Source of the DNA: Spirochaetota bacterium | GTDB taxonomy: Bacteria; Spirochaetota; GWE2-31-10 | Reading direction: 5' to 3' | DNA length: 63,978 bases | NCBI GenBank assembly: GCA_045133795.1 | Contig: JBGUUT010000115.1 | Span: forward strand, 1 to 63,978 | Part shown: positions 1 to 41,456 of the stretch, piece after piece | How positions within the stretch are numbered: the first letter of the stretch is position 1 | How the letters are laid out: every line of letters begins with the position of its first letter | Translations under genes and position numbers: made by a program | Notes under the pieces: generated by a model | What the model was told of the DNA's origin: nothing | The model's input: the letters and a program-made list of their open reading frames with translations, nothing else | Databases searched by the model: none

Positions 1-248
1 ATTTCAAAGAATAAAGGCAACGTCTTTGATTTGCGGAAGTTTGTGCCTTGTCGGATTCTTTGGGACTATATTTATAAATGAAAATATTTTGTACACCGCT
101 CCGTTTGGATACGGATTCGGGACAATAATTCTTTGCTTACAAATGTTTCATCTTGAAGATTAATCAGTTAAAAAATTAAATATACGGAAGCGGGAAATGT
201 CAAAAAAATTGAAATAATGCGTTAAATCAAGAAAGAGAGTAGGTGGTA

Positions 249-5787: not shown

Positions 5788-6557
5788 GACGGAAATACTC
5801 CTACTTTTATATGGCTGGCTGTACAATCGCTGCCGCAATGTGTACATGCATGTGTAGAACATGTTTCTACAGTCGTCATTTCATTATAAAAATGCGTTTT
5901 CTTATAATCTTCCGAAGTACCGAAAAACAGTGCGTTGTTGTTCATGTGTAAAATGTGAGTGGCATTTTGTACGGCACGATGAATGTCATGAGAAATCATC
6001 AAGACAGCAAGACCTTCTTCACGATTTCTGTTTCGTACAATCGAATAAAGCTCATCTGTGACAATCGGGTCAAGTCCGTTTACCGGCTCATCTAAAATCA
6101 GAAGTTCTGAGGCTGCACAAAAAGCTCGTGCTAAAAGAACACGTTGCATTTGTCCGCCTGAAAGCTCTTTAAACGACTTCTTTGTCAGTTTTTCTAATCC
6201 TAGTTTATAAATTTGTTCTTTAGCTCGTTTTTTTTCTTTTGCGGAATAAAAAGGCAAAAAACTTTGTGATAAACAGCCGGACATTACGACTTCACGGACA
6301 GTGGCAGGGAAATCTCGTTGTGTCATATTTTGCTGTCCGAGATATCCGATTCCCTTGCAATTTTTTTCAATCTTGCCGGCGTGCGGTTTGCACATACCGA
6401 GTATTGATTTTATCAAAGTTGATTTTCCGGAACCGTTTGCTCCGACAACGCATAAATAATCTCCCTCATGTAATGAAAAAGAAACGTTATCTACTGCGAT
6501 AAGGGAACCGTAATTTACGCATACATTTTGACATGAAATTAATTCTTTTTTTTCCAT
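5784..6557 (-). CDS. znuC: metal ABC transporter ATP-binding protein with Cys/His-rich C-terminal tail
   Basis: Walker A 'GANGSGKST', signature 'LSGGQMQR', Walker B 'LLILDEP', H-loop 'ISHD'. The tail is 'ETCSTHACTHCGSDCTASH'. Confidence 0.9.
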   Translation of the reverse strand: MEKKELISCQNVCVNYGSLIAVDNVSFSLHEGDYLCVVGANGSGKSTLIKSILGMCKPHAGKIEKNCKGIGYLGQQNMTQRDFPATVREVVMSGCLSQSFLPFYSAKEKKRAKEQIYKLGLEKLTKKSFKELSGGQMQRVLLARAFCAASELLILDEPVNGLDPIVTDELYSIVRNRNREEGLAVLMISHDIHRAVQNATHILHMNNNALFFGTSEDYKKTHFYNEMTTVETCSTHACTHCGSDCTASHIKVGVFPS

Positions 6558-6572
6558 AAAAACTAACCTTTT

Positions 6573-7550
6573 TTATTTTAAGCCTTCATCTAATGCTTTT
6601 GCATTTGCGTAAAGAGTATCAATATAAGTCATTTCATTATTAAACTGTGTTTGTGTAAGATTGTGAGCTGCATTCAGTTCCAATATTTTAACTCCGGCAC
6701 TGTCGGCAATTGTTTGTGCTATTCGGCGATTACTCATTTCTATTGTAAAAACAGCGGGAAGCTCTTTATCTTTTATCGTTTTCACAAGTTGTACGATAGT
6801 TGCAGGGCTGACTTCTACAGCAGAACTGCAACCGCCAAATGCAGCTTGATATTCTAAATTAAATTCTTGAGCAAAATATTTCAATGGGAAGCGGTCCCCC
6901 ATTACAATGAGTTTTGTTTGCTTTGTGTTTAAAATATTTTCTATTGCAACTTTTGCTTTTACGATTTCGTTTTTGTAAATAGTCGCATTTGCTTGATAGA
7001 AAACTGCATTTGCAGGATTACAATCGCTTAATGCAATAACGAGTTTATCTATCAATTCCAAAGCATTTGTCGGTGATGTCCATACGTGTTCATCAACTTC
7101 ATGACGGTGTATGTCGTGATTGTGGTCTTCAGCGTTACAATTTTCGTGAATGTCATGGTTATTTATATTTTCCATTAATTTAAAAATGTGAGACGGCGGA
7201 TTTTTTAAAGTTGATAATAATTTATTGACCCATTCATCACTTTCTCCGCCGGTATAAATGAAAATATCGGCATTTTCTATTGTGATGATATCTTTTGGAG
7301 ACGGTTCAAAAGAATGAAGGTCTGTTCCCGGTTTTAAAATCATTTGCAAATCGGCAGTAGTGTTTTGCATTCCGGAGAAAAGTTTGTTTTTTTCTGCGGT
7401 TCCGATTCCACAAACAGCACGGGCTAAATCGTAGCACATAAAATTTGTAGTTACCACAGAAAAGCTTGTTGTTACTGTCGACGTTCCTTTTTTATTACAA
7501 GCAGTCAGCAATATTAAGCATAAAATTCCCGATAAAATCTGTTTTACCAT
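6573..7550 (-). CDS. znuA: metal ABC transporter substrate-binding lipoprotein (ZnuA/TroA cluster A-I) with His-rich loop
   Basis: Lipobox 'LLTAC'; 'DLHSFEPSPKD' and 'DEHVWTSP' metal-site motifs. The His/Asp/Glu-rich loop 'NHDIHENCNAEDHNHDIHRHEVDEH' (nt about 7086..7160) is typical of zinc-specific ZnuA. Confidence 0.85.
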   Translation of the reverse strand: MVKQILSGILCLILLTACNKKGTSTVTTSFSVVTTNFMCYDLARAVCGIGTAEKNKLFSGMQNTTADLQMILKPGTDLHSFEPSPKDIITIENADIFIYTGGESDEWVNKLLSTLKNPPSHIFKLMENINNHDIHENCNAEDHNHDIHRHEVDEHVWTSPTNALELIDKLVIALSDCNPANAVFYQANATIYKNEIVKAKVAIENILNTKQTKLIVMGDRFPLKYFAQEFNLEYQAAFGGCSSAVEVSPATIVQLVKTIKDKELPAVFTIEMSNRRIAQTIADSAGVKILELNAAHNLTQTQFNNEMTYIDTLYANAKALDEGLK

Positions 7551-11561: not shown

Positions 11562-13595
11562 TTAAAAAATAAGAGAAAATTTCTTATTTTTGCAAACTTC
11601 CGGAGCCGGTTCGCCGAATAAATAACCTTGCGAATAATCGATTCCGTATTCTTGAACTTTTTTGAAAACTTCCGGAGTATGAACAAATTCCGAAACGGTT
11701 TTGATATTTAGTTCTTTGGTGAAGTTTACAATGGTTCGCGTTATTATTTGTGAAGACCTTTCAGTATCAAGGTTTTTTATCATAGAAGCATCTATTTTTA
11801 AAACATCGATATCTAATGACATCACATGGTCAAAATTTGAATATCCCGAACCAAAATCGTCAATGGCAACTTTACAACCGAAAGATTTAACATCTTCGAT
11901 AAATCCTTTGATTATATCGTAATTTTCTATTCCGTCAGATTCTAGTAATTCGAAAACAGCTCTTTTTGCTGTATCTTGATTACTCAATAAAATTGATTTT
12001 ATACAATTTCGGGTTTCTTCATTTTGAATATCAAAAACAGAAACATTAATTGAGAAGTCATATGGCAAATCAGCAAATTTCTCAAATGATTTAATAAGAA
12101 TTCTGCGAGTGATATTTGGATAAAGACGAATCTTTTTGGCAATATCCAGAAAATAATATGGACTGATAATGTCATTGTTATTGTTTACCAAACGACACAG
12201 ACATTCGTATTTTTCAATATCACCGGTTTTGTTATTAACAATAGGTTGAAAGAACGGAATTATAGAATCTCTGGCGATTGCATCTTTTAAGATGTAAGTC
12301 CATTTTATATTATTTTCATATTCTTTGGCGATTTCCATTGTTTCATCGTAAAGCAAATAATGTTTTCGCATTTGTTTAGCTTTTTTTAATGCCATATCTG
12401 CATTATAAAGAGCTGAAATCCCTAAAGTTTCTGTTATTTTTGCAGCTCCGACAGTTGCATTAATGTTAATTTCACTTTCATTACAGATAAAAACCTTATC
12501 ATTGATGACAAAAAATACAAATGCACCGATAATATTACGAACTTCATCATATAAGCTGTTGTTTTGGTCGTGGAAAGAAGAACGCTTGGTCTTTTTGTAT
12601 TCAGAATCGTCATGCTTCAGTAACAAAACAAATTCATCTGTTTGTAAGCGATAGATTGTAATGTTAAAATTGACTTTTACTCGTTGTAAACGAGATGCAA
12701 TCCCTTTTAAGATTTCGTCACCGACTTCATGGCCGTAAAAATCATTTATTTCACGGAAACTATCTACGTTAATAATGAAAACAATACCGTTGTTTATATC
12801 TTTCAAATCTTCAATAAGTTTTGTTCTGTTAGGTAATCCGGTAAGATTGTCATAATATAATTGATGTAAAAGTTGCGAGTTTTTTAATTCGATAGAGTCA
12901 ATCATATTATTAAAAGTTTGTCCCAATTCCCCAATTTCATCATCTGGAAGGTTGTTGCAGCGAACATTCGGCATATTTTTAGAAAACTTCTTAACAACTT
13001 TTGTAAGTTTTGCCAAAGGTCTTAAAACAATAAGGTTACAACCGAGGAATAACAATACCGGTATTAATATGAATACTATTAATGAATGCAGGCACTGTGT
13101 AAAAAATAAATTGTGAAATTGTTTTTTGAATACTGCCGGAGAAATCGCCATTGTTAATTCTCCGATTTTTCCGTTATTGTATATAACGTCGGCATTTAGT
13201 GAAAACATGGAATTTGAATTTAAATATTTACTGTCAGACTCTTCGTTGAAAGCTTTTATATTACCTTTTTTATCTTTTATATGTTCATATAAAATTATCT
13301 GATTTTGTTCGTTGATATAATCGGTTAATCGTAAATAAATAACATCTTCAATTAAAAGTTCATTGTCTAAAATATTTTGTATTCTTTGAGCATCATAATC
13401 CCAAAGTGTTTTTGATAGCATGAACGAAATTTTTGAAATGTTCAAATCGTGCTTTTCTTTTAGATTTTTTAAGCACGTATTTTTATTCATAGAATACGAA
13501 ATTATGATTTCTGCAAAAAGGAGAGAAAATACACAAACCAGAATAAAAGCCGTAAGTTTTAAAAAAATAGGAGAAAATAATTGTTTCTTTTTCAT
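11562..13595 (-). CDS. membrane c-di-GMP signalling protein: 2 TM sensor + HAMP + degenerate GGDEF + EAL phosphodiesterase
   Basis: HAMP 'RPLAKLTKVVKKF...DDEIGELGQTFNNM'. GGDEF-domain landmarks 'LTGLPNR' and 'DFYGHEVGDEIL', but the active site reads 'QTDEF'. EAL-domain landmarks 'YECLCRL', 'FELLESD', 'AIDDFGSGYSN', 'LKID', 'SEFV' and 'YSQGYLFGEP'. Confidence 0.8.
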   Translation of the reverse strand: MKKKQLFSPIFLKLTAFILVCVFSLLFAEIIISYSMNKNTCLKNLKEKHDLNISKISFMLSKTLWDYDAQRIQNILDNELLIEDVIYLRLTDYINEQNQIILYEHIKDKKGNIKAFNEESDSKYLNSNSMFSLNADVIYNNGKIGELTMAISPAVFKKQFHNLFFTQCLHSLIVFILIPVLLFLGCNLIVLRPLAKLTKVVKKFSKNMPNVRCNNLPDDEIGELGQTFNNMIDSIELKNSQLLHQLYYDNLTGLPNRTKLIEDLKDINNGIVFIINVDSFREINDFYGHEVGDEILKGIASRLQRVKVNFNITIYRLQTDEFVLLLKHDDSEYKKTKRSSFHDQNNSLYDEVRNIIGAFVFFVINDKVFICNESEININATVGAAKITETLGISALYNADMALKKAKQMRKHYLLYDETMEIAKEYENNIKWTYILKDAIARDSIIPFFQPIVNNKTGDIEKYECLCRLVNNNNDIISPYYFLDIAKKIRLYPNITRRILIKSFEKFADLPYDFSINVSVFDIQNEETRNCIKSILLSNQDTAKRAVFELLESDGIENYDIIKGFIEDVKSFGCKVAIDDFGSGYSNFDHVMSLDIDVLKIDASMIKNLDTERSSQIITRTIVNFTKELNIKTVSEFVHTPEVFKKVQEYGIDYSQGYLFGEPAPEVCKNKKFSLIF

Positions 13596-13612
13596 ACTAC
13601 TCCACTTCTAAA

Positions 13613-14821
13613 TTAAAAATCCCAACCGATAAAAAATCCGATACATTTAGAAAAAACATAATAATCTTCGTAAATACGTTTTCTAAAATCAGCATACGCA
13701 AAGGTATCATTTGTATAAGCCCTATCATTTCTGAACAAAAAGAAAAATTGTGTCCATATGTGATATGGCAAATCCAGTCGTATTGCGGGACCGAAATTGA
13801 TAGAAGCAAAATCTGACCCCCATCCTTTATTTTCTATTTTTGAGTCATTGTAATGTGATAAATTTAAATGATCTATCTGTAAGTAGAAAGCAAATGTTAA
13901 GATTGTGGTAAAATTTGTTACTTTCAAGAACTTGTCTTGAGTGCCGGAATTGTCTTCTCGGATAAAAATTCTATATCCGGTTGTAAAATCTCCGGTAAGT
14001 TTCCAGCCGTTAAATTGCATTCCGTAATCTGCTTTGTAAATATACGGTTGGTCATAATCAACTCCGAAATAATGTTGATAATGAAATTGCGGATTTGCTA
14101 AAAGGAAAAAATGAGTCCACTTTTGATAAGCCGGCGGTAAAACATACGCTAAATCAAATTGGAAAGTAGGTTTAAACCAAAATTGAAAAATAGGTGCGTC
14201 AAATGACATTGTAACGTAGCTTCCGTCATTGTTGGCATTAATACCGGTTCCGGTAACGTCAAAAAGCGGAACGTCCCACCCGCCGCCGATAAGGAAACCG
14301 AATTGGAATTGAAGAAATGCCGCAGCTGCTAATGTCATGGTAGCACCGGCATTTAGAGTTACCGGAGAAAGTTGTGAAATTATTTTAAATTGTAAGAAAT
14401 TATCTTTTGTCAGCGGAGTATCGAAATTTAATACGGGAACGGAAAAGCCGTATTCATTATAAAGTTCCATTTGAACACCGTCATAATTTCTTCCTACAAG
14501 TCGTCCGGCACCGTCGTCTCCGTGGTGCTTTCCGGCGGCACGATAATCTTTTTCTTCGTAAGAAATCGGAGCAAAATGTCCGGGATGACTGATACCGTCT
14601 TGGCAACCGAATAAGTAAGTAAAAACTGCAGAAACGGAACCGCGAAATCGTATAGGAAACGGAACTTTAGTGTTAATTGCGTTGTTTGTATTTTCGACAA
14701 CGGTATTATTTATAATTTCAGAATCAGTTGTTGTATCAGAGAAAGAAGTGTTTTCTTGTGAGAAAATTGAAAATGGTAATAATAAACAAAATAACAAAAG
14801 AACATAGTTTTTTTTGAGCAT
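13613..14821 (-). CDS. putative outer-membrane beta-barrel protein
   Basis: Cleavable signal peptide 'LLLFCLLLPFSIFSQE'. Aromatic/Gly-rich alternating segments and a C-terminal 'FIGWDF' ending in Phe. No named family recognised. Confidence 0.4.
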   Translation of the reverse strand: MLKKNYVLLLFCLLLPFSIFSQENTSFSDTTTDSEIINNTVVENTNNAINTKVPFPIRFRGSVSAVFTYLFGCQDGISHPGHFAPISYEEKDYRAAGKHHGDDGAGRLVGRNYDGVQMELYNEYGFSVPVLNFDTPLTKDNFLQFKIISQLSPVTLNAGATMTLAAAAFLQFQFGFLIGGGWDVPLFDVTGTGINANNDGSYVTMSFDAPIFQFWFKPTFQFDLAYVLPPAYQKWTHFFLLANPQFHYQHYFGVDYDQPYIYKADYGMQFNGWKLTGDFTTGYRIFIREDNSGTQDKFLKVTNFTTILTFAFYLQIDHLNLSHYNDSKIENKGWGSDFASINFGPAIRLDLPYHIWTQFFFLFRNDRAYTNDTFAYADFRKRIYEDYYVFSKCIGFFIGWDF

Positions 14822-25778: not shown

Positions 25779-26759
25779 CTAATAACCAATGGTAATTAAA
25801 ATCTTACCGAGTGAATATTCTTGCTTTGTTGATTTTTCAAAAACCCATTTGCAAAACTGTCTGCGAATATCTTCATCCCACATAGAATTGCCGGAACTTT
25901 TTACGATATTTGCATTTCTGATATATCCGTTAGAATCTACATCGAAGTTAATTTCTATAACAAACTTCAGACCGGCTTTTTTTATATCTTCCGGCACTTC
26001 AATTGCATCAGAAAATAATAAACCACGTGCACCTCCGCCGTTCCATTCAATATCTTTTCCGTTTGTAGCGTTATTATTGGTTGCATTTTCATTTTTACTT
26101 TTACTGTCTTTATCGTTATTTTCAGGAGACAAACTGCTTAAATTTTCAGCAAACAATGCTTCTGAAAAATCAAAATCCGGTAAAATTTCGGCAGAACTTT
26201 GGTTGTCATTAAAAAAGTCGTTTTCTAATTTTAGTTTTTCTTCTATCTGTTGGTTTTCTAATTCAGTCACGATATCATTTTCAATAGTAACGGGAGTATT
26301 TTCCGGTACTTCAACATTTTCGGAAGGTTGAGTTTTTTCTTGCTTTGGAATAATTTCTTCCTTTATTGGAGATTTTGAAGGCGTAGATGAAACTTCCGTT
26401 TTTTTTATGGTTTTATGATTTTTTTGTACGGATTGATTTTTTATGTCTGGTTTGGAGTTAGCTGCTGAAGTTTTTTGTTTAATATTTTTAGGTGAAATTA
26501 TTTTCTTTTCAGGTATCACTTGTTTCTTTGTCGGTGCATTTTCTTTTTTTGAAGAGGTTGCTTTATTGTTACCGGATTTTTCTTGTGACACACTGAGATG
26601 TTCTTGTACTAATCTGACGGTCATAACTCTGTTTTCTTCTTTTGGAACATCATTTTTTAAATGAGAACTTAAGAAAATAAGAAAGATATGAAAAAGAATT
26701 GATAAAAATATTGCCCAACCTAAACGTTGTTCTTGTGATTTGGCTTCTTTATCATTCAT
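25779..26759 (-). CDS. TonB-family energy transducer (N-terminal anchor, long K/E/P/S/N-rich linker, TonB_C-like domain)
   Basis: TM 'LGWAIFLSILFHIFLIFL'. The C-terminal 'GLKFVIEINFDVDSNGYIRNANIVKSSGNSMWDEDIRRQFCKWVF' resembles TonB_C. The start overlaps the exbD stop by 1 nt. Confidence 0.65.
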   Translation of the reverse strand: MNDKEAKSQEQRLGWAIFLSILFHIFLIFLSSHLKNDVPKEENRVMTVRLVQEHLSVSQEKSGNNKATSSKKENAPTKKQVIPEKKIISPKNIKQKTSAANSKPDIKNQSVQKNHKTIKKTEVSSTPSKSPIKEEIIPKQEKTQPSENVEVPENTPVTIENDIVTELENQQIEEKLKLENDFFNDNQSSAEILPDFDFSEALFAENLSSLSPENNDKDSKSKNENATNNNATNGKDIEWNGGGARGLLFSDAIEVPEDIKKAGLKFVIEINFDVDSNGYIRNANIVKSSGNSMWDEDIRRQFCKWVFEKSTKQEYSLGKILITIGY

Positions 26760-27172
26760 TATGATTTCCTGTCTAATGCTAAATCAATGCTGTCGTAACC
26801 GTGTTCTTTTAGAATATCCATAACTTGAATCAGTAATTCATATTCAATGCTTTTATTTCCATATAAAATAACGGATTTCTGACCAGTTGCAGGATTCACT
26901 TCGGATTTTGATAAAAGCTGTGAAAAATTTACCAAAGTTGTTTTTTTTGAGCCAACCAAGATATTCTTTTTATTTAGAATAGTTATTTTAAGCGGAGTTT
27001 CAGCAATCTTTGATAAATTTTCAGCTTTCGGCAATTCAAATTCCATTCCGGTAGTTATTTTTACTTGTGTTGCCAGCATGAAGAAAATAATTAATTGAAA
27101 AACAATATCAATCATCGGAGCCATATCCAAGACAACTTTTGTTTTTAATCTTCGGGTAAATTTTATTGCCAC
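26759..27172 (-). CDS. exbD: biopolymer transport protein ExbD/TolR
   Basis: 'DMAPMIDIVFQLIIFFM' single TM containing the conserved Asp. Size and position, after exbB, fit. Confidence 0.8.
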   Translation of the reverse strand: MAIKFTRRLKTKVVLDMAPMIDIVFQLIIFFMLATQVKITTGMEFELPKAENLSKIAETPLKITILNKKNILVGSKKTTLVNFSQLLSKSEVNPATGQKSVILYGNKSIEYELLIQVMDILKEHGYDSIDLALDRKS

Positions 27173-27173
27173 T

Positions 27174-27803
27174 TCAGCCTCTTTTTTCTTGTTTTACTAA
27201 CATTTGAATAAGGTCGTTTGCTTGAATTTCTAATTTCAAAATCATATTGTTCACTTTATTTGTATAGTGATTATAAACAACGGTAGACGGAATTGCTACG
27301 ACTAAACCGAATGCTGTAGTTAATAATGCCTTTGAAATCCCTTGTGCCAATTGCTCCATATTACCTAATGCGGCTCCGGCTCCGATGACACCGAATGTTT
27401 CCATGTTTCCCATTACGGTCCCTAACAGTCCTAGTAGAGGTGCAATACCGGCGATAGAACCTAAAGTTGTTAAAAATTTTTCTAATTTCGGAATCTCAAG
27501 ACTGGCAGCATCTTGTATTGCATCTTGAATTCTATTTTCGCCTTCTTCTCGATGTTTAATTCCGGCTTTTACCAAATTTGTTACCGGAGAATTTTTAGAA
27601 TCACAGATAGCAAGAACTTCCTCGTAGTGTTTTTGTGAAATAGCATTTGCTATGCGACTCAACAATTTATCAGTTCCCATATTGATTTTTTTGTAATAGA
27701 AAAAACGTTCCAAAGTAATTGCTAAAGCAATAATCGAACATAAAAAAATCGCAGACATAATGAAAGGCCCGCCGTCAATGAAAAGCTTTAATATATCTTT
27801 CAT
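27174..27803 (-). CDS. exbB: MotA/TolQ/ExbB proton-channel protein
   Basis: 'LGSIAGIAPLLGLLGTVMGNMETF' and 'ISKALLTTAFGLVVAIPSTVVYN' are the family-defining TM2/TM3 motifs. Confidence 0.85.
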   Translation of the reverse strand: MKDILKLFIDGGPFIMSAIFLCSIIALAITLERFFYYKKINMGTDKLLSRIANAISQKHYEEVLAICDSKNSPVTNLVKAGIKHREEGENRIQDAIQDAASLEIPKLEKFLTTLGSIAGIAPLLGLLGTVMGNMETFGVIGAGAALGNMEQLAQGISKALLTTAFGLVVAIPSTVVYNHYTNKVNNMILKLEIQANDLIQMLVKQEKRG

Positions 27804-27871
27804 GTTTCCTCCGTAAGATTAAACTTGATTAATAGAAAAAATATCGTCAAAAAATAAAAAAGGCTAAGTGA

Positions 27872-27911
27872 AAAATAAAAAACCCTTTAACAGAATTAAT
27901 CTATTAAAGGG
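27872..27911 (-). terminator. rho-independent terminator after the polyacidic-protein gene
   Basis: The minus strand reads cccttTAA-tagattaattctg-TTAaaggg followed by a long T-run. It lies 25 nt past the stop at 27936. Confidence 0.65.
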
Positions 27912-27935
27912 TAAAATAGCTAAAAAACTAAACGA

Positions 27936-28283
27936 TTATTCATCTTCGTCAAAATCGTTGTAATCTAATTCGTCGTCTTCGTAAATATCTTCATCATCAT
28001 CGTCGAATTCGTCGAAGTCTTCGTCATCTTCATCGTCGTAATCATCATCATAATCATCGTCTTCGTCATCATAGTCATCATAATCATCGAAGTCGTCATC
28101 ATAATCATCATCGTCGTCAAAATCTTCATCTTCATCGAAATCTTCGTCGAAGTCTTCGTCTTCATCTTCGTAATCGTCTTCATCGTCGTAATCATCATCA
28201 AAATCTTCGTCGCCGTCGTCATCATAAGCCGCAGCAAAAAGAGAATTTTTTTCTAGTAAATCTTCATCTTCTACATAAAACAT
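27936..28283 (-). CDS. extremely acidic low-complexity protein (Asp/Glu with periodic Phe/Tyr)
   Basis: By my count 79 of 115 residues are D/E, with one Lys and no Arg or His. A strong SD (AAGGGAGGGA) lies 9 nt before the ATG. The gene has its own TTGACA -35-like element upstream and its own terminator downstream. Confidence 0.6.
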   Translation of the reverse strand: MFYVEDEDLLEKNSLFAAAYDDDGDEDFDDDYDDEDDYEDEDEDFDEDFDEDEDFDDDDDYDDDFDDYDDYDDEDDDYDDDYDDEDDEDFDEFDDDDEDIYEDDELDYNDFDEDE

Positions 28284-28324
28284 AATAAGGTCCCTCCCTT
28301 AGTATCTCAAAAATTTTCATAGAC

Positions 28325-28353
28325 ATAGAACATAATGCTAATATTCTTGTCAA
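28325..28353 (-). promoter_or_regulatory. candidate promoter of the polyacidic-protein gene
   Basis: The minus strand reads TTGACA (28353..28348), a 17-nt spacer, then TTCTAT (28330..28325). The -10 element is weak. Confidence 0.3.
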
Positions 28354-28384
28354 GATATTTTTAGTGAATAAAATATATTTACTA

Positions 28385-29047
28385 TTAAAAAGTATTATTG
28401 AAAACAAAATTGCAATCTTTTTTAAAATAATCAAAGAAGTTATGAGAAGCCGTAAAAACTGGGATTTCGTATTCTTCTGTTAATATTTGCGGTAACGGCC
28501 AACAATCTTTTGCCATAACACACCAAACAACAGTCATTTCAACTTTTTTTTCAATAAAATCTGCCAATCTTACCGGCTCTTTTAACTGCAAATCTTTCAT
28601 AAAAGACAAAAAACCGGCAGCACTTTCTCTGTAAAAGTATTTGTTACTGATTTTGTCATTGCATAGGTAAAATTTTAATAATTGATTTCTGAGTTTATGT
28701 CCGAAACTGCTTTTTTTATATTTTCCGTTAAGAAGCGTACCGTAGAAATCCGGTTCGATAAAGAAAACTCCCTTTATTTTTTCAGAAAAACGTTTAACTA
28801 AATCTCCGGCAATATAAGAAAAGACTCCGAAAGAAACGATATAAACAGGTTCTTTTTTATTTATTATAATTTGTGATATTTTTAAAACAAATTCATCGTA
28901 AGTTGTATCTGTGGAATAGTCCAGGAAAGTTGGCTCATACTGAATATCCCCAAAAAGACTGTAAACAATTTCATTGCTAAAAATACGGTTAAAAGGGAAA
29001 AAAGGAGAGACTATAACACTTATTGGCTTATTATCTTCCGAATTCAC
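28385..29047 (-). CDS. hypothetical protein, possible small alpha/beta-hydrolase (esterase/thioesterase-like); last gene of the ACP-KS cassette
   Basis: Strand-like 'ISVIVSPFF', a nucleophile-elbow-like 'YIVSFGVFSYIAG', then 'VVWCVMAKD' and 'FTASHNFF' in the Ser..Asp..His order. The functional assignment is weak. Confidence 0.35.
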   Translation of the reverse strand: MNSEDNKPISVIVSPFFPFNRIFSNEIVYSLFGDIQYEPTFLDYSTDTTYDEFVLKISQIIINKKEPVYIVSFGVFSYIAGDLVKRFSEKIKGVFFIEPDFYGTLLNGKYKKSSFGHKLRNQLLKFYLCNDKISNKYFYRESAAGFLSFMKDLQLKEPVRLADFIEKKVEMTVVWCVMAKDCWPLPQILTEEYEIPVFTASHNFFDYFKKDCNFVFNNTF

Positions 29048-29096
29048 TTTCTACCTCCCAAATTACGATTTTATTAAATTTCAGATTATAAAATAA

Positions 29097-30458
29097 TCAA
29101 TCTAAATTGTTAATCATTGCTTCTATTGCAACTTTATTAATTTTGCCCATTTCATTTCGTGGGATTTTTGTTTGTAAAATTCTTTTAGGGATTGCGTATC
29201 CCGGCAATATTTTTCTTAAGTCTTTACTTATTTGAATTGTATTCAGTTTATCTTTGCATTCAGCCAGTAGGTAAATGTTTTCATCTTTACAACCGACAAA
29301 AATTTCATTTTCACCCAAAATAATTGCGTGTGTATCTTTTAAATAGTTAATGAAATTAGCAGAAATAAATCCTAAATCAATTCTTTTTCCGTGAATTTTT
29401 ACAAATCGAGTATTTCGTCCCAATAAAGTAAAATGTCTTTCATCAATAAATTTTACTATATCGCCGGTACAATATCCGACTTCCTTATCATATTCGACAG
29501 AAATTGCAGGAGATGAAATAAAAAGTTCCAGTTCTTCTGTCGGATGATAGTTTTTTACGTTAACATAATCAATTAATTCATAATTTGGATTTTTTGCATA
29601 TATGCGATATGCCATTCCGCCGGTTTCGGTAGAACCGTAAATCTCGTGAATTTTTATATTTTTATCAAAGAATTTCTTTGAAATTTCACCCGGTAAAGGA
29701 CCGGAAGAACTGAAAGCTCCTTTTAATTTTGAAAAACATTCTATTAAATTTAACTTATCAAATAATCCATAATACGAAGGAACAGCGACAAGATAGTCAA
29801 TTTTAGAATTTACAATATAATCTGCGATAGATTCCGGAGTAAAAAAAGAATTCAAATCAATTGTTGCTGAGGAAAAAATCGGTAACATTGTAAAAAGGAA
29901 ACCGTAAATATGGTAAATCGGCGGAATACATAGAAAAACATCACCTTTTTCTATAGAAAAAAGTTTTTGTAATTCTGCAAGTTCCGTAAGAATATTAGAA
30001 CTCCACTTGCCGATATTTTTAGATTTTCCGGTCGAACCTGATGTGAAAAAATATAAATCATAAATATTTTCGAAATCTTTTATATTTTCTGCGTTGAAAT
30101 CTTTTTCCGGAACAAGGTTAAAATCTGGTGTTAGGAAAATTCCGTTGTCATGGTGTTTGTTATCACTGATATAGATAATTCCCGGTTCGAAAAAAAGCTG
30201 AGGTTGAATCTCAATTGGAATCAAAACGGTAGCCAAATTTAATTTTTTCATTGTAAAAAAACTAATTAAGAATAGAAATCTGTCTTTTATATCAAGATAA
30301 ACACGTTTATTTTCAATGTTATTGCTTAACAATTTGCAGAAGTTTTGTTCTAAAAGTGCGATTTTTGTGTCGATTTCTTTTTTTGTATAACAAAAATTAT
30401 CATATAAAAATGAAACATTCTCCGAATCATTATAAACGGAATACAAATTATTTTTCAT
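29097..30458 (-). CDS. adenylate-forming (AMP-dependent) acyl ligase
   Basis: 'FFTSGSTGKSKNI' (A3 core), 'YGSTETGG' (A5), 'TGDIVKF' and 'LLGRNTRFVKIHGKRI' (A7/A8), and a C-terminal 'MGKINK' Lys. ATGA overlap with the upstream gene. Confidence 0.85.
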   Translation of the reverse strand: MKNNLYSVYNDSENVSFLYDNFCYTKKEIDTKIALLEQNFCKLLSNNIENKRVYLDIKDRFLFLISFFTMKKLNLATVLIPIEIQPQLFFEPGIIYISDNKHHDNGIFLTPDFNLVPEKDFNAENIKDFENIYDLYFFTSGSTGKSKNIGKWSSNILTELAELQKLFSIEKGDVFLCIPPIYHIYGFLFTMLPIFSSATIDLNSFFTPESIADYIVNSKIDYLVAVPSYYGLFDKLNLIECFSKLKGAFSSSGPLPGEISKKFFDKNIKIHEIYGSTETGGMAYRIYAKNPNYELIDYVNVKNYHPTEELELFISSPAISVEYDKEVGYCTGDIVKFIDERHFTLLGRNTRFVKIHGKRIDLGFISANFINYLKDTHAIILGENEIFVGCKDENIYLLAECKDKLNTIQISKDLRKILPGYAIPKRILQTKIPRNEMGKINKVAIEAMINNLD

Positions 30459-31342
30459 AGAACAACCTCGAAAAGATAATATATTCCGTTATTTTGTTCT
30501 ATTACTGCGGTTTTTCCTTTAATTTCTAAAATAAAAGGTAATGCTAAACGTGTTACTATTGAAATCGGAGAATCTGCGGTTAATGGATAATCAGTCAATA
30601 GTTCTGCGTTAACTTTATCTTTTAATGTTACAAAAGTTTCTTTGTCGGCAATAATGTGATTATATTCAGGAAGAGAATCAAGAATTTCTTGCCAATTATT
30701 TGATTCAGATTTTAAGAAAAAACCTTTTGTTTCATTTTCATTCTTAACAGCTTTATAAGAAATGAAGTTAGGAAAAAGTTTATAATCGTACTTAATTTCA
30801 AGATTATAAAATGAAGAATATTCGTCACCGGCAACAATAATAAATTGCGGATTTACTTTGATTAAAAATTTTATTAAATCAACGAAAGATTTTCCTGTAT
30901 TAATTCCGTCAGATACAGCCAAACAATAATTGTGACATTTATTAATGATTGTATAATATCCTAACGGTGTATTATGAACGGAATTATGAAATAGAACCGG
31001 ACTTACCAGCGTACTGTTATTAATTTTCAAATCTTCAATAATTTTATTTGATGTGTCGATTTCAGCAAAAGATGTAAATAAGTAAATTTCATCATCTTCT
31101 TGCAAGTCTTTAGCACCGCCGTTTTGCAATGCTTGAAAGACGCCTAAAGATAATTGACTCATTCTACGTTTTAACGGAGATTTAATATTGTTTGATAATT
31201 CGGGAATCTCTTGTGATAGATTCGGAGATAATTCAATTTGAGAAAGCAATCCTTTGTTGTACATTTCTTTCAATGTATCTGTAGACGAAACCTCAGAATT
31301 TATGAAATGAATATCTTTGATGTAAGTGAATTCTTGTTTCAT
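30455..31342 (-). CDS. Cys-less ketosynthase-N-terminal-like protein (chain-length-factor-type, PF13723-like)
   Basis: 'LKRRMSQLSLGVFQAL' and 'VSPVLFHNSVHNTPLGYYTII......CLAVSDGINTGKSF' match my recollection of the Ketoacyl-synt_2 family of aryl-polyene-type loci. There is no active-site Cys/His/His triad. TAATG overlap with the KS gene. Confidence 0.55.
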   Translation of the reverse strand: MKQEFTYIKDIHFINSEVSSTDTLKEMYNKGLLSQIELSPNLSQEIPELSNNIKSPLKRRMSQLSLGVFQALQNGGAKDLQEDDEIYLFTSFAEIDTSNKIIEDLKINNSTLVSPVLFHNSVHNTPLGYYTIINKCHNYCLAVSDGINTGKSFVDLIKFLIKVNPQFIIVAGDEYSSFYNLEIKYDYKLFPNFISYKAVKNENETKGFFLKSESNNWQEILDSLPEYNHIIADKETFVTLKDKVNAELLTDYPLTADSPISIVTRLALPFILEIKGKTAVIEQNNGIYYLFEVVL

Positions 31343-32514
31343 TACATCTCCTTTTCACTGGAATTATCGGACATATTTGTCTTTATTAATACAGAAACGT
31401 TATTTCCGCCGAATCCGAATGAATTTTTAAGGAAATATTTTATGTTTTCTGCTTTTATAGTTTTAGATGGAATTAACGCACTTATCGGATTTGAGAATGT
31501 TTTCGGTTGATAAATAAAACCTTCTTTTAACATATCAATACAAAGTGAGATTTCCGTAATTGTAGATGCCCCCAAAGTATGTCCGATATATGATTTTAAT
31601 GAAGTAACACATGTATTACGTTCGTCAAAAATTGTTTCTAATGCAGATAACTCTACTTGATCGTTCATTTTTGTTCCGGTTCCGTGTGCGTTGATGTAAC
31701 CTACATCGTTCGCAGAAATTCCGGCTTCATTTAATGCATCGTGAATACATTTTTTTTGATTGGTTCCGGAAGGATCCGGAGCTGTTATATGATGACCGTC
31801 AACACCGGAACCGACTCCGGCAATTTCAAAATCATTTGGAGTTCTGGCTTTATTTTCTAAAACTAGAACACCGGCACCTTCACCTAATGTAAGACCGTCA
31901 CGTTGTTCTGTTAACGGACATGAAGGTTTATCTGAAACTAATTGCAATGAATCAAAGCCAATTAGTGTTGTTTGCGAAATTATATCAATTCCCAATAGAA
32001 TAGCACTGTTTATTACTCCGGCTTTTATCAAACGAGCTGCTTGATAAATAGCATGACCGGAAGATGAACACGCAGTGGAAAAAGTGAAAATCTCACCGAT
32101 TTTACCTTTTGGATATCTATATCTTATGTCCGTACTGGTTTTATTAAAAAAATGATTTTCAAATACGGAATAAGATGATTTTTTATTAGTTAAATCAATG
32201 TAATTCAACTCAGTTTCTCTTATTCCTCCGGTAGATGAAGATAAGAAAACCGGAATATTATCATTTGCATCGATAAAGTCTTTGCACTTATCTAAAAGCG
32301 AAAAAATGATGGCAGATGACCTTACTTGATTTTTATATTCATTAAATGCTGATGGAATAACATAAAAAGGTTTAGTAAAATTAAAAGCTTTTTCGTCTGT
32401 TATCGGTTGGGGATTTTGCTGACTTAACGACCGTAGAATTTCATCAGTTGTAATACCAAGGGAGCTTGCACTCCCATGGTATGTTATAAAAACTCTATTT
32501 TTTTGCGTTTTCAT
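31342..32514 (-). CDS. beta-ketoacyl-ACP synthase (KAS I/II, FabF/FabB-like)
   Basis: Active-site Cys in 'FSTACSSSGHAI', His in 'VDGHHITAPDP', His in 'YINAHGTGT', plus 'GHTLGAS' and 'NSFGFGGNN'. Confidence 0.9.
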   Translation of the reverse strand: MKTQKNRVFITYHGSASSLGITTDEILRSLSQQNPQPITDEKAFNFTKPFYVIPSAFNEYKNQVRSSAIIFSLLDKCKDFIDANDNIPVFLSSSTGGIRETELNYIDLTNKKSSYSVFENHFFNKTSTDIRYRYPKGKIGEIFTFSTACSSSGHAIYQAARLIKAGVINSAILLGIDIISQTTLIGFDSLQLVSDKPSCPLTEQRDGLTLGEGAGVLVLENKARTPNDFEIAGVGSGVDGHHITAPDPSGTNQKKCIHDALNEAGISANDVGYINAHGTGTKMNDQVELSALETIFDERNTCVTSLKSYIGHTLGASTITEISLCIDMLKEGFIYQPKTFSNPISALIPSKTIKAENIKYFLKNSFGFGGNNVSVLIKTNMSDNSSEKEM

Positions 32515-32749
32515 TCACAAAGTCGTAGAATATTTGAAAAGAATCAAGTTTATTTTGATTCAAATCTTTGTCTTTTATTTTGATTCCAAATTTTTTCTCG
32601 ATTTCAACAATCAATTCTAAAACATCTATAGAATCAAAAAACAATCCGTCTTCCCCAATTAAAACGGTATCATCTGTAATCGAACTGATATCATCATCAC
32701 TTTTGGCTACAGTCAGAATTACTTTTTTTAATTCGTCTTTATCTACCAT
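32495..32749 (-). CDS. dedicated acyl carrier protein
   Basis: 84 aa. 'GLFFDSIDVLELIVEIE' carries the DS(I/L) phosphopantetheine-Ser motif. The 3' end overlaps the KS start by 20 nt. Confidence 0.8.
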   Translation of the reverse strand: MVDKDELKKVILTVAKSDDDISSITDDTVLIGEDGLFFDSIDVLELIVEIEKKFGIKIKDKDLNQNKLDSFQIFYDFVNENAKK

Positions 32750-32773
32750 AATTTTTCTCCCTTAATAAAATCT

Positions 32774-33328
32774 TTATTCTACAATTGTAGTTACAGCTTC
32801 AGGAGAATAATTAATATCATTTAAGATTTTAACAATTCGTTTTTGTGTATCTTCGTTTTTAAGTGCGTCTTTTGTTAAAGTATAATATAAACCACTTTTT
32901 TCTTTTTCATAGTAAGACTTCATTTCAGTTTTAACAGCATCATCTGAAATCTTTTCTATAATAAAAGCTTCAAAGTCTTCTGCATTAATATTTTCCGGAG
33001 CTTCAGTTAAACCTTTAACTACAGTTTCAGAAGTGATTCCGGCATCGAATTCAAGTTCGCTTATAAGCTTATTTCCGATTTGAGCATCACGAGTAGTCTT
33101 TGCAGAAATAGAACCGATTATTAAACTTAAAACAAAAAATAAAACTAAAAGAACAGAAGTTATCTTAGTAAGCATTGTCGCAGAACTTGCACCAAAGAAA
33201 GACTGAGATGACCCACCGAGAATTCCCAATCCACCGCCGGATTTATCTTCTTGAACGAGGATAACCAAAGTCATCAAAACGCAAACGACAATCATAAATA
33301 TAGCTAAAATATTAATTGTTAAATGCAT
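32774..33328 (-). CDS. secG: preprotein translocase subunit SecG with about 105-aa C-terminal extension
   Basis: The N-terminal 75 aa, 'VILVQEDKSGGGLGILGGSSQSFFGAS...', plus a second TM are typical SecG. The gene follows tpiA after an 18-nt gap. Confidence 0.75.
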   Translation of the reverse strand: MHLTINILAIFMIVVCVLMTLVILVQEDKSGGGLGILGGSSQSFFGASSATMLTKITSVLLVLFFVLSLIIGSISAKTTRDAQIGNKLISELEFDAGITSETVVKGLTEAPENINAEDFEAFIIEKISDDAVKTEMKSYYEKEKSGLYYTLTKDALKNEDTQKRIVKILNDINYSPEAVTTIVE

Positions 33329-33346
33329 TATTTTATTTCCTTAAAA

Positions 33347-34108
33347 TTAAACTTTTTCAAATTTAGCAATCTTTGTAAACGGAGCTAATTTCAATGATGC
33401 ACCGCCGACTAAAGCACCGTCAATGTTTTTCTGAGCCATTAAGCTGTCTACGTTTGTATCAGAAACAGAACCGCCGTATTGAACAGTTACATTTTCTGCA
33501 ACTTCAGCACCGTAAAGATTTGTTAATATGTTTCTAATGTCTTGGTGAGTTGCTTCTGCAATTTCTGGAGTTGCAGTTTTTCCTGTACCGATAGCCCAAA
33601 CTGGTTCATATGCAATTACAATATTAGCCATTTCTGCTGCAGAAACGTCTTTTAAACCTTCTTCAAGTTGTGTTTTTACAACATTAGCTGTAATTCCAGC
33701 TTCTCTTTCTTCTAAGTGTTCTCCGATACAAAGAACAGGTTTCAAACCTTTTGCTAATGCAAATTTAACTTTTTTGTTAATTAAAGCATTGTCTTCTTTG
33801 TAGATGTCTCTTCTTTCTGAGTGTCCTAAAATAACGTATTCAACGCCAAGGTCTAATAACATGTCAGCTGAAACTTCTCCGGTATAAGCACCTTTTTCGT
33901 TGTCATTCATGTTTTGTGCTCCTAATTTTATAGGAGTTCCTGCGATTGCTTCTTTTACATAAGCAAGAGATGCGAAATTCGGTGCAATCATCACGTCAAC
34001 ATCTTTATCTAAATCTTTAATGTTAGCAGCAAGCTCAGCAGCAAATTTTTTTGCTTCACTTGGAGTTAAATTCATTTTCCAATTTCCTGCCATTAAATAT
34101 CTTCTCAT
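33347..34108 (-). CDS. tpiA: triosephosphate isomerase
   Basis: 'MAGNWKMN', 'GAYTGEVS', 'VILGHSERR', 'AYEPVWAIGTG' and 'YGGSV'. Confidence 0.95.
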   Translation of the reverse strand: MRRYLMAGNWKMNLTPSEAKKFAAELAANIKDLDKDVDVMIAPNFASLAYVKEAIAGTPIKLGAQNMNDNEKGAYTGEVSADMLLDLGVEYVILGHSERRDIYKEDNALINKKVKFALAKGLKPVLCIGEHLEEREAGITANVVKTQLEEGLKDVSAAEMANIVIAYEPVWAIGTGKTATPEIAEATHQDIRNILTNLYGAEVAENVTVQYGGSVSDTNVDSLMAQKNIDGALVGGASLKLAPFTKIAKFEKV

Positions 34109-34270
34109 AATACTTACTCCACTGAAAAAAAATAATTGGGTCGAATATACCTTTATGAGATTAAAATGTCAAAGTTTTTTTCGACATTAAGGATTTGTAA
34201 TTCTTAGCTGTACGTTTTTATTAAAATGAAGTAAATATTATTTTCAGTTATTTGGTGAGGAGATTTTTTT

Positions 34271-34963
34271 ATGTATTTTGATCCTTTATATTTATTGCTT
34301 TCGGCTCCGGTATTAATATTTTCAATGTTGGCACAATGGGCTGTAAAGTCTAATTTTTCAAAATATTCAAAAGTAAGAAATAGTTACGGAATTTCGGGAA
34401 GCGAAATTGCACGTTTAATTTTAGAACGCAATGGAATTATGGATGTAAAAGTGGAACCTACGAGAGGGTGGTTGTCGGATCATTATTCTCCGTCAGAAAG
34501 GGTGTTAAGGTTATCAGAACCGGTATATAACAGTAATTCAATTGCGGCTATCGGGGTTGCAGCACATGAAGCGGGCCATGCATTGCAACATAAATTCGGT
34601 TATTCTATGATGACACTCAGACAAAGTCTTGCATATCCGGCTTCATTTGCAAGTAACATTTCGGTGTGGTTAATTGTCATTGGTGCATTAATAGGAGCGA
34701 TGGGATTAGCAAAAATAGGTTTTGTATTATTTTGTATTGTTGTTTTATTTCAGATAGTGACTCTTCCCGTGGAATTTGATGCATCAAGAAGAGCAAAAAA
34801 ATTATTGGTTGAATACGGAATTGCAGACCGCAGAGATTCTTCCGGAGTTGCCAGTGTTTTAAATGCGGCAGCAATGACTTATGTGGCAGCTGCAGCCTCT
34901 TCAATAAGTCAATTATTGTATTATGCAATTCGTTTGGGATTATTTAACAGAAGAGATGATTAA
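34271..34963 (+). CDS. zinc metallopeptidase, YugP family (Zn_peptidase_2)
   Basis: 'MYFDPLYLLL', 'LSDHYSPSERVLRLSE' and 'AAHEAGHALQH' (HExxH), with C-terminal TM helices. Confidence 0.85.
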   Translation: MYFDPLYLLLSAPVLIFSMLAQWAVKSNFSKYSKVRNSYGISGSEIARLILERNGIMDVKVEPTRGWLSDHYSPSERVLRLSEPVYNSNSIAAIGVAAHEAGHALQHKFGYSMMTLRQSLAYPASFASNISVWLIVIGALIGAMGLAKIGFVLFCIVVLFQIVTLPVEFDASRRAKKLLVEYGIADRRDSSGVASVLNAAAMTYVAAAASSISQLLYYAIRLGLFNRRDD

Positions 34964-40312: not shown

Positions 40313-40555
40313 ATGACAAACGAAGAAATTTTTGAAAAAGTTAAAAAATTAATTGCAGAGAGATTAGCTGTAAATGAAAGTAAAATTGTTCCTGAAGCTT
40401 CTTTTATTGAAGATTTAGGTGCTGATTCTTTAGATACAGTAGAATTGCTTACACAATTGGAATCTGAATTTAACATTACTATTCCGGATGAAGATGCTGA
40501 AAAAATCACTACAGTTGGAAGTGTTATTGAGTACATTCAGAAGAATGAAGCGTAA
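40313..40555 (+). CDS. acpP: acyl carrier protein (housekeeping)
   Basis: '[23 protein letters not shown]' is the canonical AcpP motif. Confidence 0.92.
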
Positions 40556-40583
40556 TTAAATTCATTATGATTTAGTGAATAGG

Positions 40584-40627
40584 CCTTTATAAAAGAACCC
40601 AGATGTTTTTTTATAAAGGTTTTTTTA
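40584..40627 (+). terminator. rho-independent terminator/attenuator after acpP
   Basis: cctttataaaa ... ttttataaagg forms an 11-bp stem followed by TTTTTTTA. Confidence 0.65.
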
Positions 40628-40670
40628 TTAGGAAAAGAGTGTTATTTTATTCTGGATACGGAGTTAGACT

Positions 40671-41456
40671 TTGGAAACAAAAAGAAAAGAAGAATTAAAG
40701 AAATTTCTGAAAGAACAAAAAATAAAGTTTAATGATCTTGATCTTCTGGATTTGGCATTATCTCATCGTTCATTTGCTAATGAGAAAAATGTGGGAATGG
40801 GAAATAATGAAAAATTAGAATTCTTAGGTGATTCTGTTTTAGGTTTAATTATTACAGAGTTTCTTTATAAAAATTATTCATCTTTGCATGAAGGAAATTT
40901 TGCCAGAGTAAAATCCTTTGTGGTCAGTGAAGAAATGCTATCAACGCAAGGGAAAAATATCGGATTAAATAAATTGATAAAAATAGGTCACGGAGAAGAA
41001 ATGACCGGAGGGCGTGAGAAAAAAGCGATAATTGCTGATGCCTTTGAAGCTTTTCTCGGTGCAATGTATCTGGATTCAAAATATTCACGTGTAGAAGAAT
41101 TTGTTGTCCGATTATTTGAGGAAGAAATTAAACTTGTGGTGAATGAACGTCAAGGACAAGATTATAAGACATTGCTGCAAGAATATGTTCAGAAAAAATA
41201 TCGTGATTGTCCGCAATATCGCCAGATATCGGAAAGCGGCCCGGAACACAATAAAACTTTTTTAATGGAAGTTCTTGTTGATAATCAAGTTATAGCTCAA
41301 GCTACCGGGAAATCAAAAAAAGAAGCAGAAAAGAATGCCGCAAAAATAGCTTATCGAAGAATTATTGATAATTTCCCTAAAGAAGAAAAACAGACTACTG
41401 GAAATCATGAAAAAAGCCGAAAACATTACAGAAAAAGGAGAGGTAATACAGAATGA
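40671..41456 (+). CDS. rnc: ribonuclease III
   Basis: 'NEKLEFLGDSVLG' catalytic signature and 'ADAFEAFLGA'. C-terminal dsRBD 'DYKTLLQEYVQK...GPEHNKTF...GKSKKEAEKNAA'. TTG start and a basic C-terminal tail. Confidence 0.9.
   Translation: METKRKEELKKFLKEQKIKFNDLDLLDLALSHRSFANEKNVGMGNNEKLEFLGDSVLGLIITEFLYKNYSSLHEGNFARVKSFVVSEEMLSTQGKNIGLNKLIKIGHGEEMTGGREKKAIIADAFEAFLGAMYLDSKYSRVEEFVVRLFEEEIKLVVNERQGQDYKTLLQEYVQKKYRDCPQYRQISESGPEHNKTFLMEVLVDNQVIAQATGKSKKEAEKNAAKIAYRRIIDNFPKEEKQTTGNHEKSRKHYRKRRGNTE

Follow-up and report, generated by a model that had tools for sequence, protein, structure and literature searches.

A candidate reduced aryl-polyene-type core with a fixed place behind tpiA-secG in uncultured Spirochaetota

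Among described systems, aryl polyene (APE) biosynthesis is the closest to the locus presented here. In this system, ApeH adenylates 4-hydroxybenzoate and loads an acyl carrier protein (ACP) without a CoA intermediate (PMC8253772), and ApeO and ApeC form a heterodimer of ketosynthase (KS) and chain length factor (CLF), in which the CLF keeps only about one thiolase half (PMC8253772, PMC8358021). A similar logic is found in the cispentacin and coronafacic acid systems (AmcB, AmcF-AmcG and AmcH; Cfa1 and Cfa3-5), for which a four-gene "minimal type" has been described: an adenylating enzyme loads a dedicated ACP, a KS and a non-catalytic partner perform the extension, and the gene order resembles that of the locus analysed here (PMC10698177). 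Here, we analyse a cassette on the minus strand of a 63,978-nucleotide stretch of DNA (the window; contig JBGUUT010000115.1, assembly GCA_045133795.1) from a Spirochaetota bacterium. An original prediction, made from the sequence alone, had proposed that an ACP, a KS, a Cys-less KS-like protein, an adenylating ligase and a small hydrolase form an undescribed module attached to tpiA-secG. The word "undescribed" holds only in part: "arylpolyene" clusters of Spirochaetota have been counted in genome-mining surveys (PMC9177762, PMC8863827), and our literature search found no paper characterising one of them.

We propose, as a moderately probable reading based on analogy with characterised proteins, that the cassette encodes a reduced APE-type core, in which the ligase would load a carboxylic acid on the dedicated ACP and the KS-CLF pair would extend it with malonyl units. 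The genes of the string, starting from tpiA, are the following:

33347..34108, minus strand: tpiA (triose-phosphate isomerase), first gene of the string; PF00121.
32774..33328, minus strand: secG, 184 aa, with a long C-terminal extension; PF03840 at E 1.6e-14, TIGR00810 above cut-off.
32495..32749, minus strand: dedicated ACP, 84 aa, ApeE-like, with a DSID phosphopantetheine site; PF00550 at E 8e-7.
31342..32514, minus strand: ApeO-like KS, 390 aa, catalytic residues complete; PF02801 at E 4e-31, PF00109 at E 1e-14.
30455..31342, minus strand: Cys-less thiolase-fold partner (CLF type, ApeC-like), 295 aa; PF13723 at E 9e-9.
29097..30458, minus strand: stand-alone adenylate-forming ligase, ApeH-like, 453 aa; PF00501 at E 2e-20.
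28385..29047, minus strand: lineage-specific alpha/beta-hydrolase-fold protein without a nucleophile, 220 aa; AlphaFold and Foldseek.
27936..28283, minus strand: hyper-acidic protein, 115 aa, sixth gene, co-conserved with the cassette; no family match.

The likeness to the APE core (ApeE, ApeO-ApeC and ApeH of E. coli CFT073, Xenorhabdus doucetiae and Acinetobacter baumannii) extends to each of its parts, as the closest sequence, profile or fold match of ACP, KS, partner and ligase is, in each case, the corresponding Ape protein. Like ApeC, the partner is shortened and devoid of the catalytic Cys; the KS gene immediately precedes that of the partner, an arrangement also seen in myxobacterial and methylococcal APE-like loci; and the ligase is likewise a free-standing, short (~450 aa) ANL enzyme. 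The differences are equally clear. The partner, at 295 aa against 238-249 aa for ApeC, keeps more of the second thiolase half. Unlike a full APE cluster, the cassette has no ketoreductase (KR) ApeQ, dehydratase (DH) ApeI/P, second KS ApeR, second ACP ApeF, thioesterase ApeK, methyltransferase, acyltransferase ApeD or DUF3261 protein ApeN, while it carries two lineage-specific genes and sits in a tpiA-secG operon.

The closest PDB sequence to the KS is Xenorhabdus ApeO (6qsp_A, E 7e-49), followed by 7f28_B (E 9e-40), which we take to be Acinetobacter baumannii ApeO, then by FabF entries at about 1e-36 and by 7f27_A (1.5e-30), presumably an ApeR-type KS. NCBIfam models were calibrated on the E. 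coli APE cluster (the characterised type; locus L087). The top model of the KS is NF006618, an ApeO-type model on which E. coli ApeO scores 556 bits; the cassette KS reaches 272 bits and does not pass the cut-off of 407. On the FabF model TIGR03150, it scores 201 bits, again below the cut-off (493.75), which places it nearer to ApeO than to FabF. The complete Cys/His/His triad that had been predicted is borne out: the window KS has Cys149, His242 and His277, and its alignment with 11 spirochaete orthologues and with E. coli ApeO and ApeR shows no variation at these positions or at Lys307 and Phe368.

The partner had been assigned to the PF13723 KS-like family, and it does pass this model (35.6 bits against a gathering score of 25). 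Its sole PDB sequence match is ApeC (6qsp_B). The AlphaFold model (pLDDT 86, pTM 0.85) leads to the same protein by fold, since 6qsp_B is the top Foldseek match (E 1.7e-10, target TM 0.73), followed by the CLFs AntE and Iga12. Alignment with E. coli ApeC by hhalign (E 1e-5) spans the SP..F..SVHN motif. The canonical Cys position is occupied by S144-D145-G146, with no cysteine. Two motifs are invariant, namely R60-M61-S62 and S114-P115..F118-H119-N120..H123, and the first of them recalls the conserved surface pair Arg30/Arg31 of ApeC (PMC8358021). The low-confidence segment of the model, residues 95-122, spans the most conserved motif of the partner and would fit a region that becomes ordered only upon complex formation. 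Altogether, the aryl-polyene-like affinity suggested for the pair holds, with ApeO and ApeC as the closest matches in both sequence and fold.

The carrier protein had been described as dedicated, with a DSI serine and a canonical acpP elsewhere, and each of these points stands. The PF00550 match is accompanied by a DSID serine that is invariant in the 15 spirochaete orthologues aligned. The top NCBIfam model is NF006617, an ApeE-type model that E. coli ApeE passes (89.5 bits against a cut-off of 70) and the cassette ACP does not (34.4 bits). The gene at 40313-40555 passes the AcpP model TIGR00517 with 115 bits (cut-off 70.45), whereas the cassette ACP fails it with 27.5 bits and is therefore a specialised carrier protein. 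At the housekeeping locus itself (40313-41456, plus strand), acpP is directly followed by rnc (RNase III), and there is no fabF.

The ligase matches PF00501 and carries all ANL core motifs, as had been stated, with TSGSTGKSK, PPIYHIYGFLF, YGSTETGG, GRNTRFVKIHGKRIDL and MGKINK conserved and also present in ligases of APE-like loci, against which tblastn gives E-values from 1e-20 to 1e-28. The motifs HHIYG(L/F)LF and GSTETGGIA are common to this ligase and to those of myxobacterial APE-like loci. Its closest solved relatives in the PDB are adenylation domains that load carrier proteins. TIGR02372 (4-coumarate ligase) is the only NCBIfam model aligned in a single, near-full-length stretch, with a low score, and the same is true of E. 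coli ApeH. In its A4 region, PPIYHIYGFLF is a motif of the acyl/aryl-acid kind, without the aspartate to which an alpha-amino group binds in ANL enzymes. The ligase is predicted to load the cassette ACP.

The fifth gene departs from what had been expected of it. The AlphaFold model of the 220-aa protein (pLDDT 74, pTM 0.79) gives 516 PDB matches in Foldseek at E <= 1e-3, and all 50 listed are alpha/beta hydrolases, at E about 1e-6 and with a query-normalised TM of ~0.55-0.65 for most of these 50. They include epoxide hydrolases, hydroxynitrile lyases, the curacin thioesterase domain and cinnamoyl esterases. Sequence searches returned no PDB match at E <= 10, none in NCBIfam and only a sub-threshold LIDHydrolase match in Pfam; a profile search of 1.84 billion representatives yielded 33 cluster representatives; at least 30 of these clearly belong to the family, and the membership of the weakest one (P0105) is uncertain. 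When the protein is aligned by hhalign with a genuine hydrolase, the G-F-S-L-G elbow falls on S72-F73-G74-V75-F76, so that the nucleophile position corresponds to the invariant Gly74. Within the family, Ser77 varies between S, T and A, and His202 between H, Q, D, K, E, N and C, while P18, F73, G74, F76, E98-P99-D100, W175, W183-P184-L185, Q187 and Y193 are invariant. The "possible Ser..Asp..His arrangement" is consequently not conserved, and the small hydrolase imagined to release the product has the fold without a nucleophile or a conserved His. Since the nucleophile aligns to Gly74 and neither Ser77 nor His202 is conserved, a conventional hydrolase or thioesterase role was rejected, and on sequence grounds such a function appears unlikely.

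A five-gene unit also proved too small. Behind the cassette, both the window and 12 related loci (the rearranged L018 and L014 among them) have a hyper-acidic open reading frame, which brings the conserved unit to six genes. In the window, the protein has 115 aa, of which ~68% are Asp or Glu, with scattered Phe and Tyr, and its gene is preceded by a ribosome-binding site of its own. Members of the family are 113-168 aa long with 60-71% Asp+Glu (for example L003 11969-12313, L007 13013-13384 and L018 8011-8517); their N-terminus is conserved in the closest relatives (MFYVEDEDLLEKN...), and no family match was obtained. A 90-aa Met/Thr/Lys-rich open reading frame at 27965-28237 (minus strand) was set aside, as it is almost certainly an alternative-frame artefact of the GAT/GAA codons of the acidic gene, which form 22 staggered copies of a 49-nt repeat.

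The cassette recurs across a spirochaete lineage. A homologue scan with one genome per GTDB species recovered 19 spirochaete loci (L003-L021, 33-78% identity), all from metagenome-assembled genomes of ruminant gut, anaerobic digesters and groundwater. All further matches were APE-like loci of other phyla or groups, among them Myxococcales, Methylococcaceae and Candidatus Uabimicrobium; their identity was 24-46% and in most cases confined to the N-terminal portion. Homologues of the partner down to 40% identity come from uncultured Spirochaetota only, and identical cassette proteins occur on ENA metagenome contigs from gut samples. By tblastn, the order tpiA-secG-ACP-KS-CLF-ligase is found wherever the contig permits (L003-L005, L007-L010, L012-L017 and L021, with secG undetected in L016), and also on a 240-kb JGI contig. 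Whether the genes travel together behind secG was a check that the original prediction had called for, and in the main they do: tpiA precedes the cassette in about 15 related loci, all of uncultured Spirochaetota species, and where the order is conserved TpiA identity falls to 63-76% and CLF identity to 40-48%. Four loci are exceptions. In L018 (5022-11988), an inversion parts ACP-KS from the CLF, ligase and 220-aa genes, such that CLF-ligase-alpha/beta-fold-acidic on one strand converge on tpiA-secG-ACP-KS on the other, with all genes intact. L014 has no 220-aa gene, yet the acidic gene is still downstream. L019 and L020, the most divergent loci, do not adjoin tpiA-secG. The sequences point to vertical conservation of the cassette. 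In the place of the missing 220-aa gene, L014 encodes a 580-aa protein (5305-7047) that, judged from sequence alone, is lipoprotein-like and possibly a glycoside hydrolase.

The two divergent loci provide a hint about the starter. In both (L019 6963-8546 and L020 6996-8582), an aromatic amino-acid ammonia-lyase (PF00221, E 1e-155) lies directly 5′ of the ACP gene, where tpiA-secG sits elsewhere, giving the layout lyase-ACP-KS-CLF-ligase. L020 carries, in addition, a second ACP (12283-12519), a second KS (12523-13590) and a 126-aa short CLF-like gene (13590-13970). The motifs of the ligase are identical in the lyase-linked and tpiA-linked clades. This arrangement is like that of flexirubin and myxobacterial APE-like systems, which start from an FlxA-type lyase: related lyases lie within about 10 kb of the KS-CLF genes in myxobacterial APE-like loci, and those of L019 and L020 are 37-41% identical to them. 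Unlike these systems, the sub-clade of the window has no lyase within 64 kb, and the lyases of L019 and L020 score similarly, always below cut-off, on the HAL, TAL, PAL and aminomutase models. The presumed selectivity position carries an unusual Phe-His pair, which serves as a lead only. The lyase in two divergent relatives hints at an aryl-acid starter and may tie the spirochaete family to flexirubin- or APE-like initiation from an aryl-acrylic acid. The window also encodes a protein of the BD-FAE family (bifunctional feruloyl/acetyl-xylan esterase; 243-1082, plus strand) and a PF00756 esterase (60641-61531, plus strand). Such esterases could free hydroxycinnamic acids from plant cell walls in a gut habitat; the BD-FAE protein fits, and does not show, access to plant hydroxycinnamates.

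The functions that accompany a full APE cluster were sought by tblastn, with three FabG/ApeQ and three DH/FabZ queries (at E <= 1e-3) as well as ApeK, ApeD, ApeB and ApeN. None gave a match in the window and the 19 related loci (327 kb in all). Over the same DNA, no hot-dog thioesterase, lipid acyltransferase, methyltransferase or DUF3261 (LolB-like) protein was found, and ApeR-type queries matched only the cassette KS and the second KS of L020. The Pfam tables of neighbouring genes hold no MMPL or LolA domain; ApeJ, ApeL and ApeM were not among the tblastn queries. The predicted lack of adjacent partner enzymes is thereby upheld for ketoreductase, dehydratase and acyltransferase, while LolA/MMPL exporter, enoyl reductase and cyclase were not used as queries.

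These findings lead to a model that draws on the characterised ApeH, ApeE and ApeO-ApeC proteins. The ApeH-like ligase would adenylate a free carboxylic acid without an alpha-amino group and pass the acyl group directly to the phosphopantetheine arm of the ApeE-like ACP. The ApeO-like KS would pair with its Cys-less ApeC-like partner and lengthen the ACP-bound starter in decarboxylative condensations with malonyl-ACP. The starter, a weaker part of the proposal, would most likely be an aromatic or aryl-acrylic acid, because of the APE ancestry of all four parts and the lyase directly 5′ of the ACP gene in two divergent relatives. As no ketoreductase or dehydratase is encoded nearby, the system would perform one or a few unreduced condensations or borrow FabG/FabZ-type enzymes from elsewhere. 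The alpha/beta-fold protein would more likely bind or hand over the ACP-bound product, or act as a scaffold, than hydrolyse it. Catalytic competence is suggested by the aligned orthologues, in which the KS keeps its Cys/His/His/Lys/Phe set, the ACP its serine and the ligase its motifs, all either invariant or conserved. The original prediction had offered two working hypotheses, and the one favoured is starter adenylation, ACP loading and KS-CLF extension; its last step, release by a hydrolase, is not supported.

Several observations weigh against the model. All four proteins of the proposed core miss the curated cut-offs of the APE-type models (KS 272 bits against 407, ACP 34 against 70), their identity to the E. 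coli APE proteins is only ~27-36%, and the highest NCBIfam models of the ligase are fatty-acid ligases, at 77 and 67 bits. The sub-clade of the window has no lyase nearby. With no KR, DH, second KS, lipid acyltransferase or DUF3261 protein in the window or the 19 loci (save the second KS of L020), the locus alone cannot make a true polyene. Neither the sources of malonyl-ACP (FabD and acetyl-CoA carboxylase) nor a phosphopantetheinyl transferase was seen in the part of the genome that was inspected. Finally, with the nucleophile missing from the alpha/beta-fold protein, there is no candidate enzyme for the release step.

The other working hypothesis, an exogenous fatty-acid route, appears unlikely. 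Here, the ligase would be an acyl-ACP synthetase for imported fatty acids, which the KS and its partner would elongate with FabG, FabZ and FabI encoded elsewhere, to supply lipids for the envelope or for lipoproteins; in this lineage, the KS might even serve as the principal elongating condensing enzyme. The top NCBIfam models of the ligase do belong to long-chain fatty-acid-CoA ligases and Aas-type acyl-ACP synthetases (64-77 bits), and the cassette is inherited vertically inside a housekeeping operon, with rnc rather than fabF next to acpP and no fatty-acid synthesis (fab) gene in the 64-kb window by Pfam tables and tblastn. A dedicated non-AcpP carrier and a CLF-type partner, however, typify polyketide-type systems and not type II fatty acid synthesis, and the cassette has both. 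Moreover, its KS lies nearer to ApeO than to FabF, and divergent relatives join the same four genes to an aromatic amino-acid lyase.

Rather less probable still is a relative of the "minimal type", in which a keto-acid such as 2-oxoglutarate would be loaded, extended by a single C2 unit and then cyclised on the ACP. With its ACP ... KS, partner and adenylating enzyme, the cassette parallels amcB/F/G/H in both the content and the order of its genes, and the first steps of such a system require no KR or DH. This comparison rests on the NCBIfam AmcB and AmcF models, to which the ACP and KS have secondary matches of 30 and 157 bits. Both nevertheless fail the equivalog cut-offs (AmcB NF058660, 80; AmcF NF058662, 325) and lie below the APE-type models, and the AmcF match is generic, E. 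coli ApeO itself scoring 166 bits. AmcG is reported to be without known motifs, whereas the window partner passes PF13723 and matches ApeC; no AmcH-specific match appears among the best 25 families of the ligase, and the hot-dog decarboxylase was not found in the cassette loci. Two candidates for a plasmid Amc/Cfa comparison were discarded: the Bacillus cereus match is a different FabG-ACP-KS-CLF-FabZ-aminotransferase system and that in Lactiplantibacillus is a fused KS protein. That the cassette is a decaying remnant of an ancestral aryl-polyene cluster without a current function seems very improbable. Most genes of a full APE cluster are missing, and the accessory alpha/beta-fold protein has lost its nucleophile, but all open reading frames are intact, the catalytic residues are invariant across species with a TpiA identity of 50-76%, translationally coupled overlaps are kept, and the pair survives the inversion in L018. 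As a functional analogy to the favoured APE-type core, the PqsA/PqsBC alkyl-quinolone pathway combines an aromatic-acid ligase with a condensing heterodimer that has one catalytically dead subunit, to give a small signalling lipid. PqsBC are FabH-type enzymes that act on CoA thioesters and are not homologous to the cassette KS-CLF pair.

The layout of the genes agrees with the original prediction. All five minus-strand open reading frames are present where it had placed them, and the junctions are as claimed: the ACP and KS genes overlap by 20 nt, KS and CLF by 1 nt (TAATG), CLF and ligase by 4 nt (ATGA), and a 49-nt gap precedes the 220-aa gene. The ACP gene begins 24 nt past the end of secG, in a gap that contains a strong ribosome-binding site (AAGGGAG) and no terminator-like or strong promoter-like site. 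Three candidate signals are of note:

34144..34172, minus strand: sigma-70-like promoter candidate 5′ of tpiA (TTGACA-17-TATATT); 11/12 consensus match only.
29085..29113, minus strand: second promoter-like site at the ligase stop codon (TTAACA-17-TATAAT); 11/12 consensus match.
27882..27912, minus strand: intrinsic-terminator-like hairpin, 13-bp stem and T run; probable end of the transcription unit.

The site at 34172-34144 is the better of two 5′ of tpiA and is tied in score with that at 29113-29085. The hairpin at 27912-27882 has the longest stem (13 pairs) among the minus-strand sites from tpiA to exbB and was judged to be the sole strong terminator-like hairpin in this interval. Co-transcription of the cassette with tpiA-secG is plausible in view of the 11/12 promoter-like site, the 24-nt gap and the lack of a terminator, and in the sub-clade of the window transcription probably covers the entire string, starting at the tpiA promoter and ending at the terminator (27912-27882). 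The site at 29113-29085 could give the alpha/beta-fold and acidic genes a transcript of their own. Seven loci have a secG-ACP gap of 15-53 nt, and five have one of 163-287 nt; tight coupling thus holds for the sub-clade of the window and not necessarily for all. A riboswitch or leader RNA was rejected, as an Rfam scan of 27500-34500 at E <= 1 gave no match. Recent horizontal insertion was likewise rejected: a repeat scan saw no mobile-element signature, such as flanking repeats of that kind, the GC content of the cassette (~0.31) is like that of its neighbours (~0.32-0.33), and conservation is vertical. Downstream, an exbB-exbD-tonB-like trio (25779-27803, minus strand) adjoins the terminator and is kept beside the cassette only in the closer relatives L003-L007. 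Further away, 1538-4459 (minus strand) encodes a 973-aa surface-type protein with six Listeria-Bacteroides repeats and two Big_3 domains.

What is new here is the reduced four-part architecture with its lineage-wide, fixed place behind tpiA-secG, the nucleophile-less alpha/beta-fold protein with its hyper-acidic companion, and the implication that such a locus alone cannot yield a polyene. The locus appears to be a natural minimal version of the system, reduced to loading enzyme, ACP and KS-CLF, and kept intact in one genomic place across many species. We offer, as a tentative possibility, that this uncultured anaerobic spirochaete lineage as a whole may constitutively turn an aryl acid, taken from the environment or supplied by a lyase, into an ACP-derived metabolite or envelope lipid of an undescribed kind. 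It would do so with a four-part APE-like core without dedicated reductive enzymes, and with release or hand-over through the nucleophile-less alpha/beta-fold and hyper-acidic disordered proteins, neither of which has a characterised relative. Hard-wired in the tpiA-secG operon, this activity would count as primary metabolism and not as an accessory pathway. Loci of this sort, unable to make a polyene unaided, may be among the automated "arylpolyene" calls in Spirochaetota (PMC9177762, PMC8863827). If active, the locus would be the smallest working unit of this class of polyketide synthases, would indicate that the class can run without reductive and export genes of its own, and would point to a new product of ruminant-gut and digester spirochaetes.

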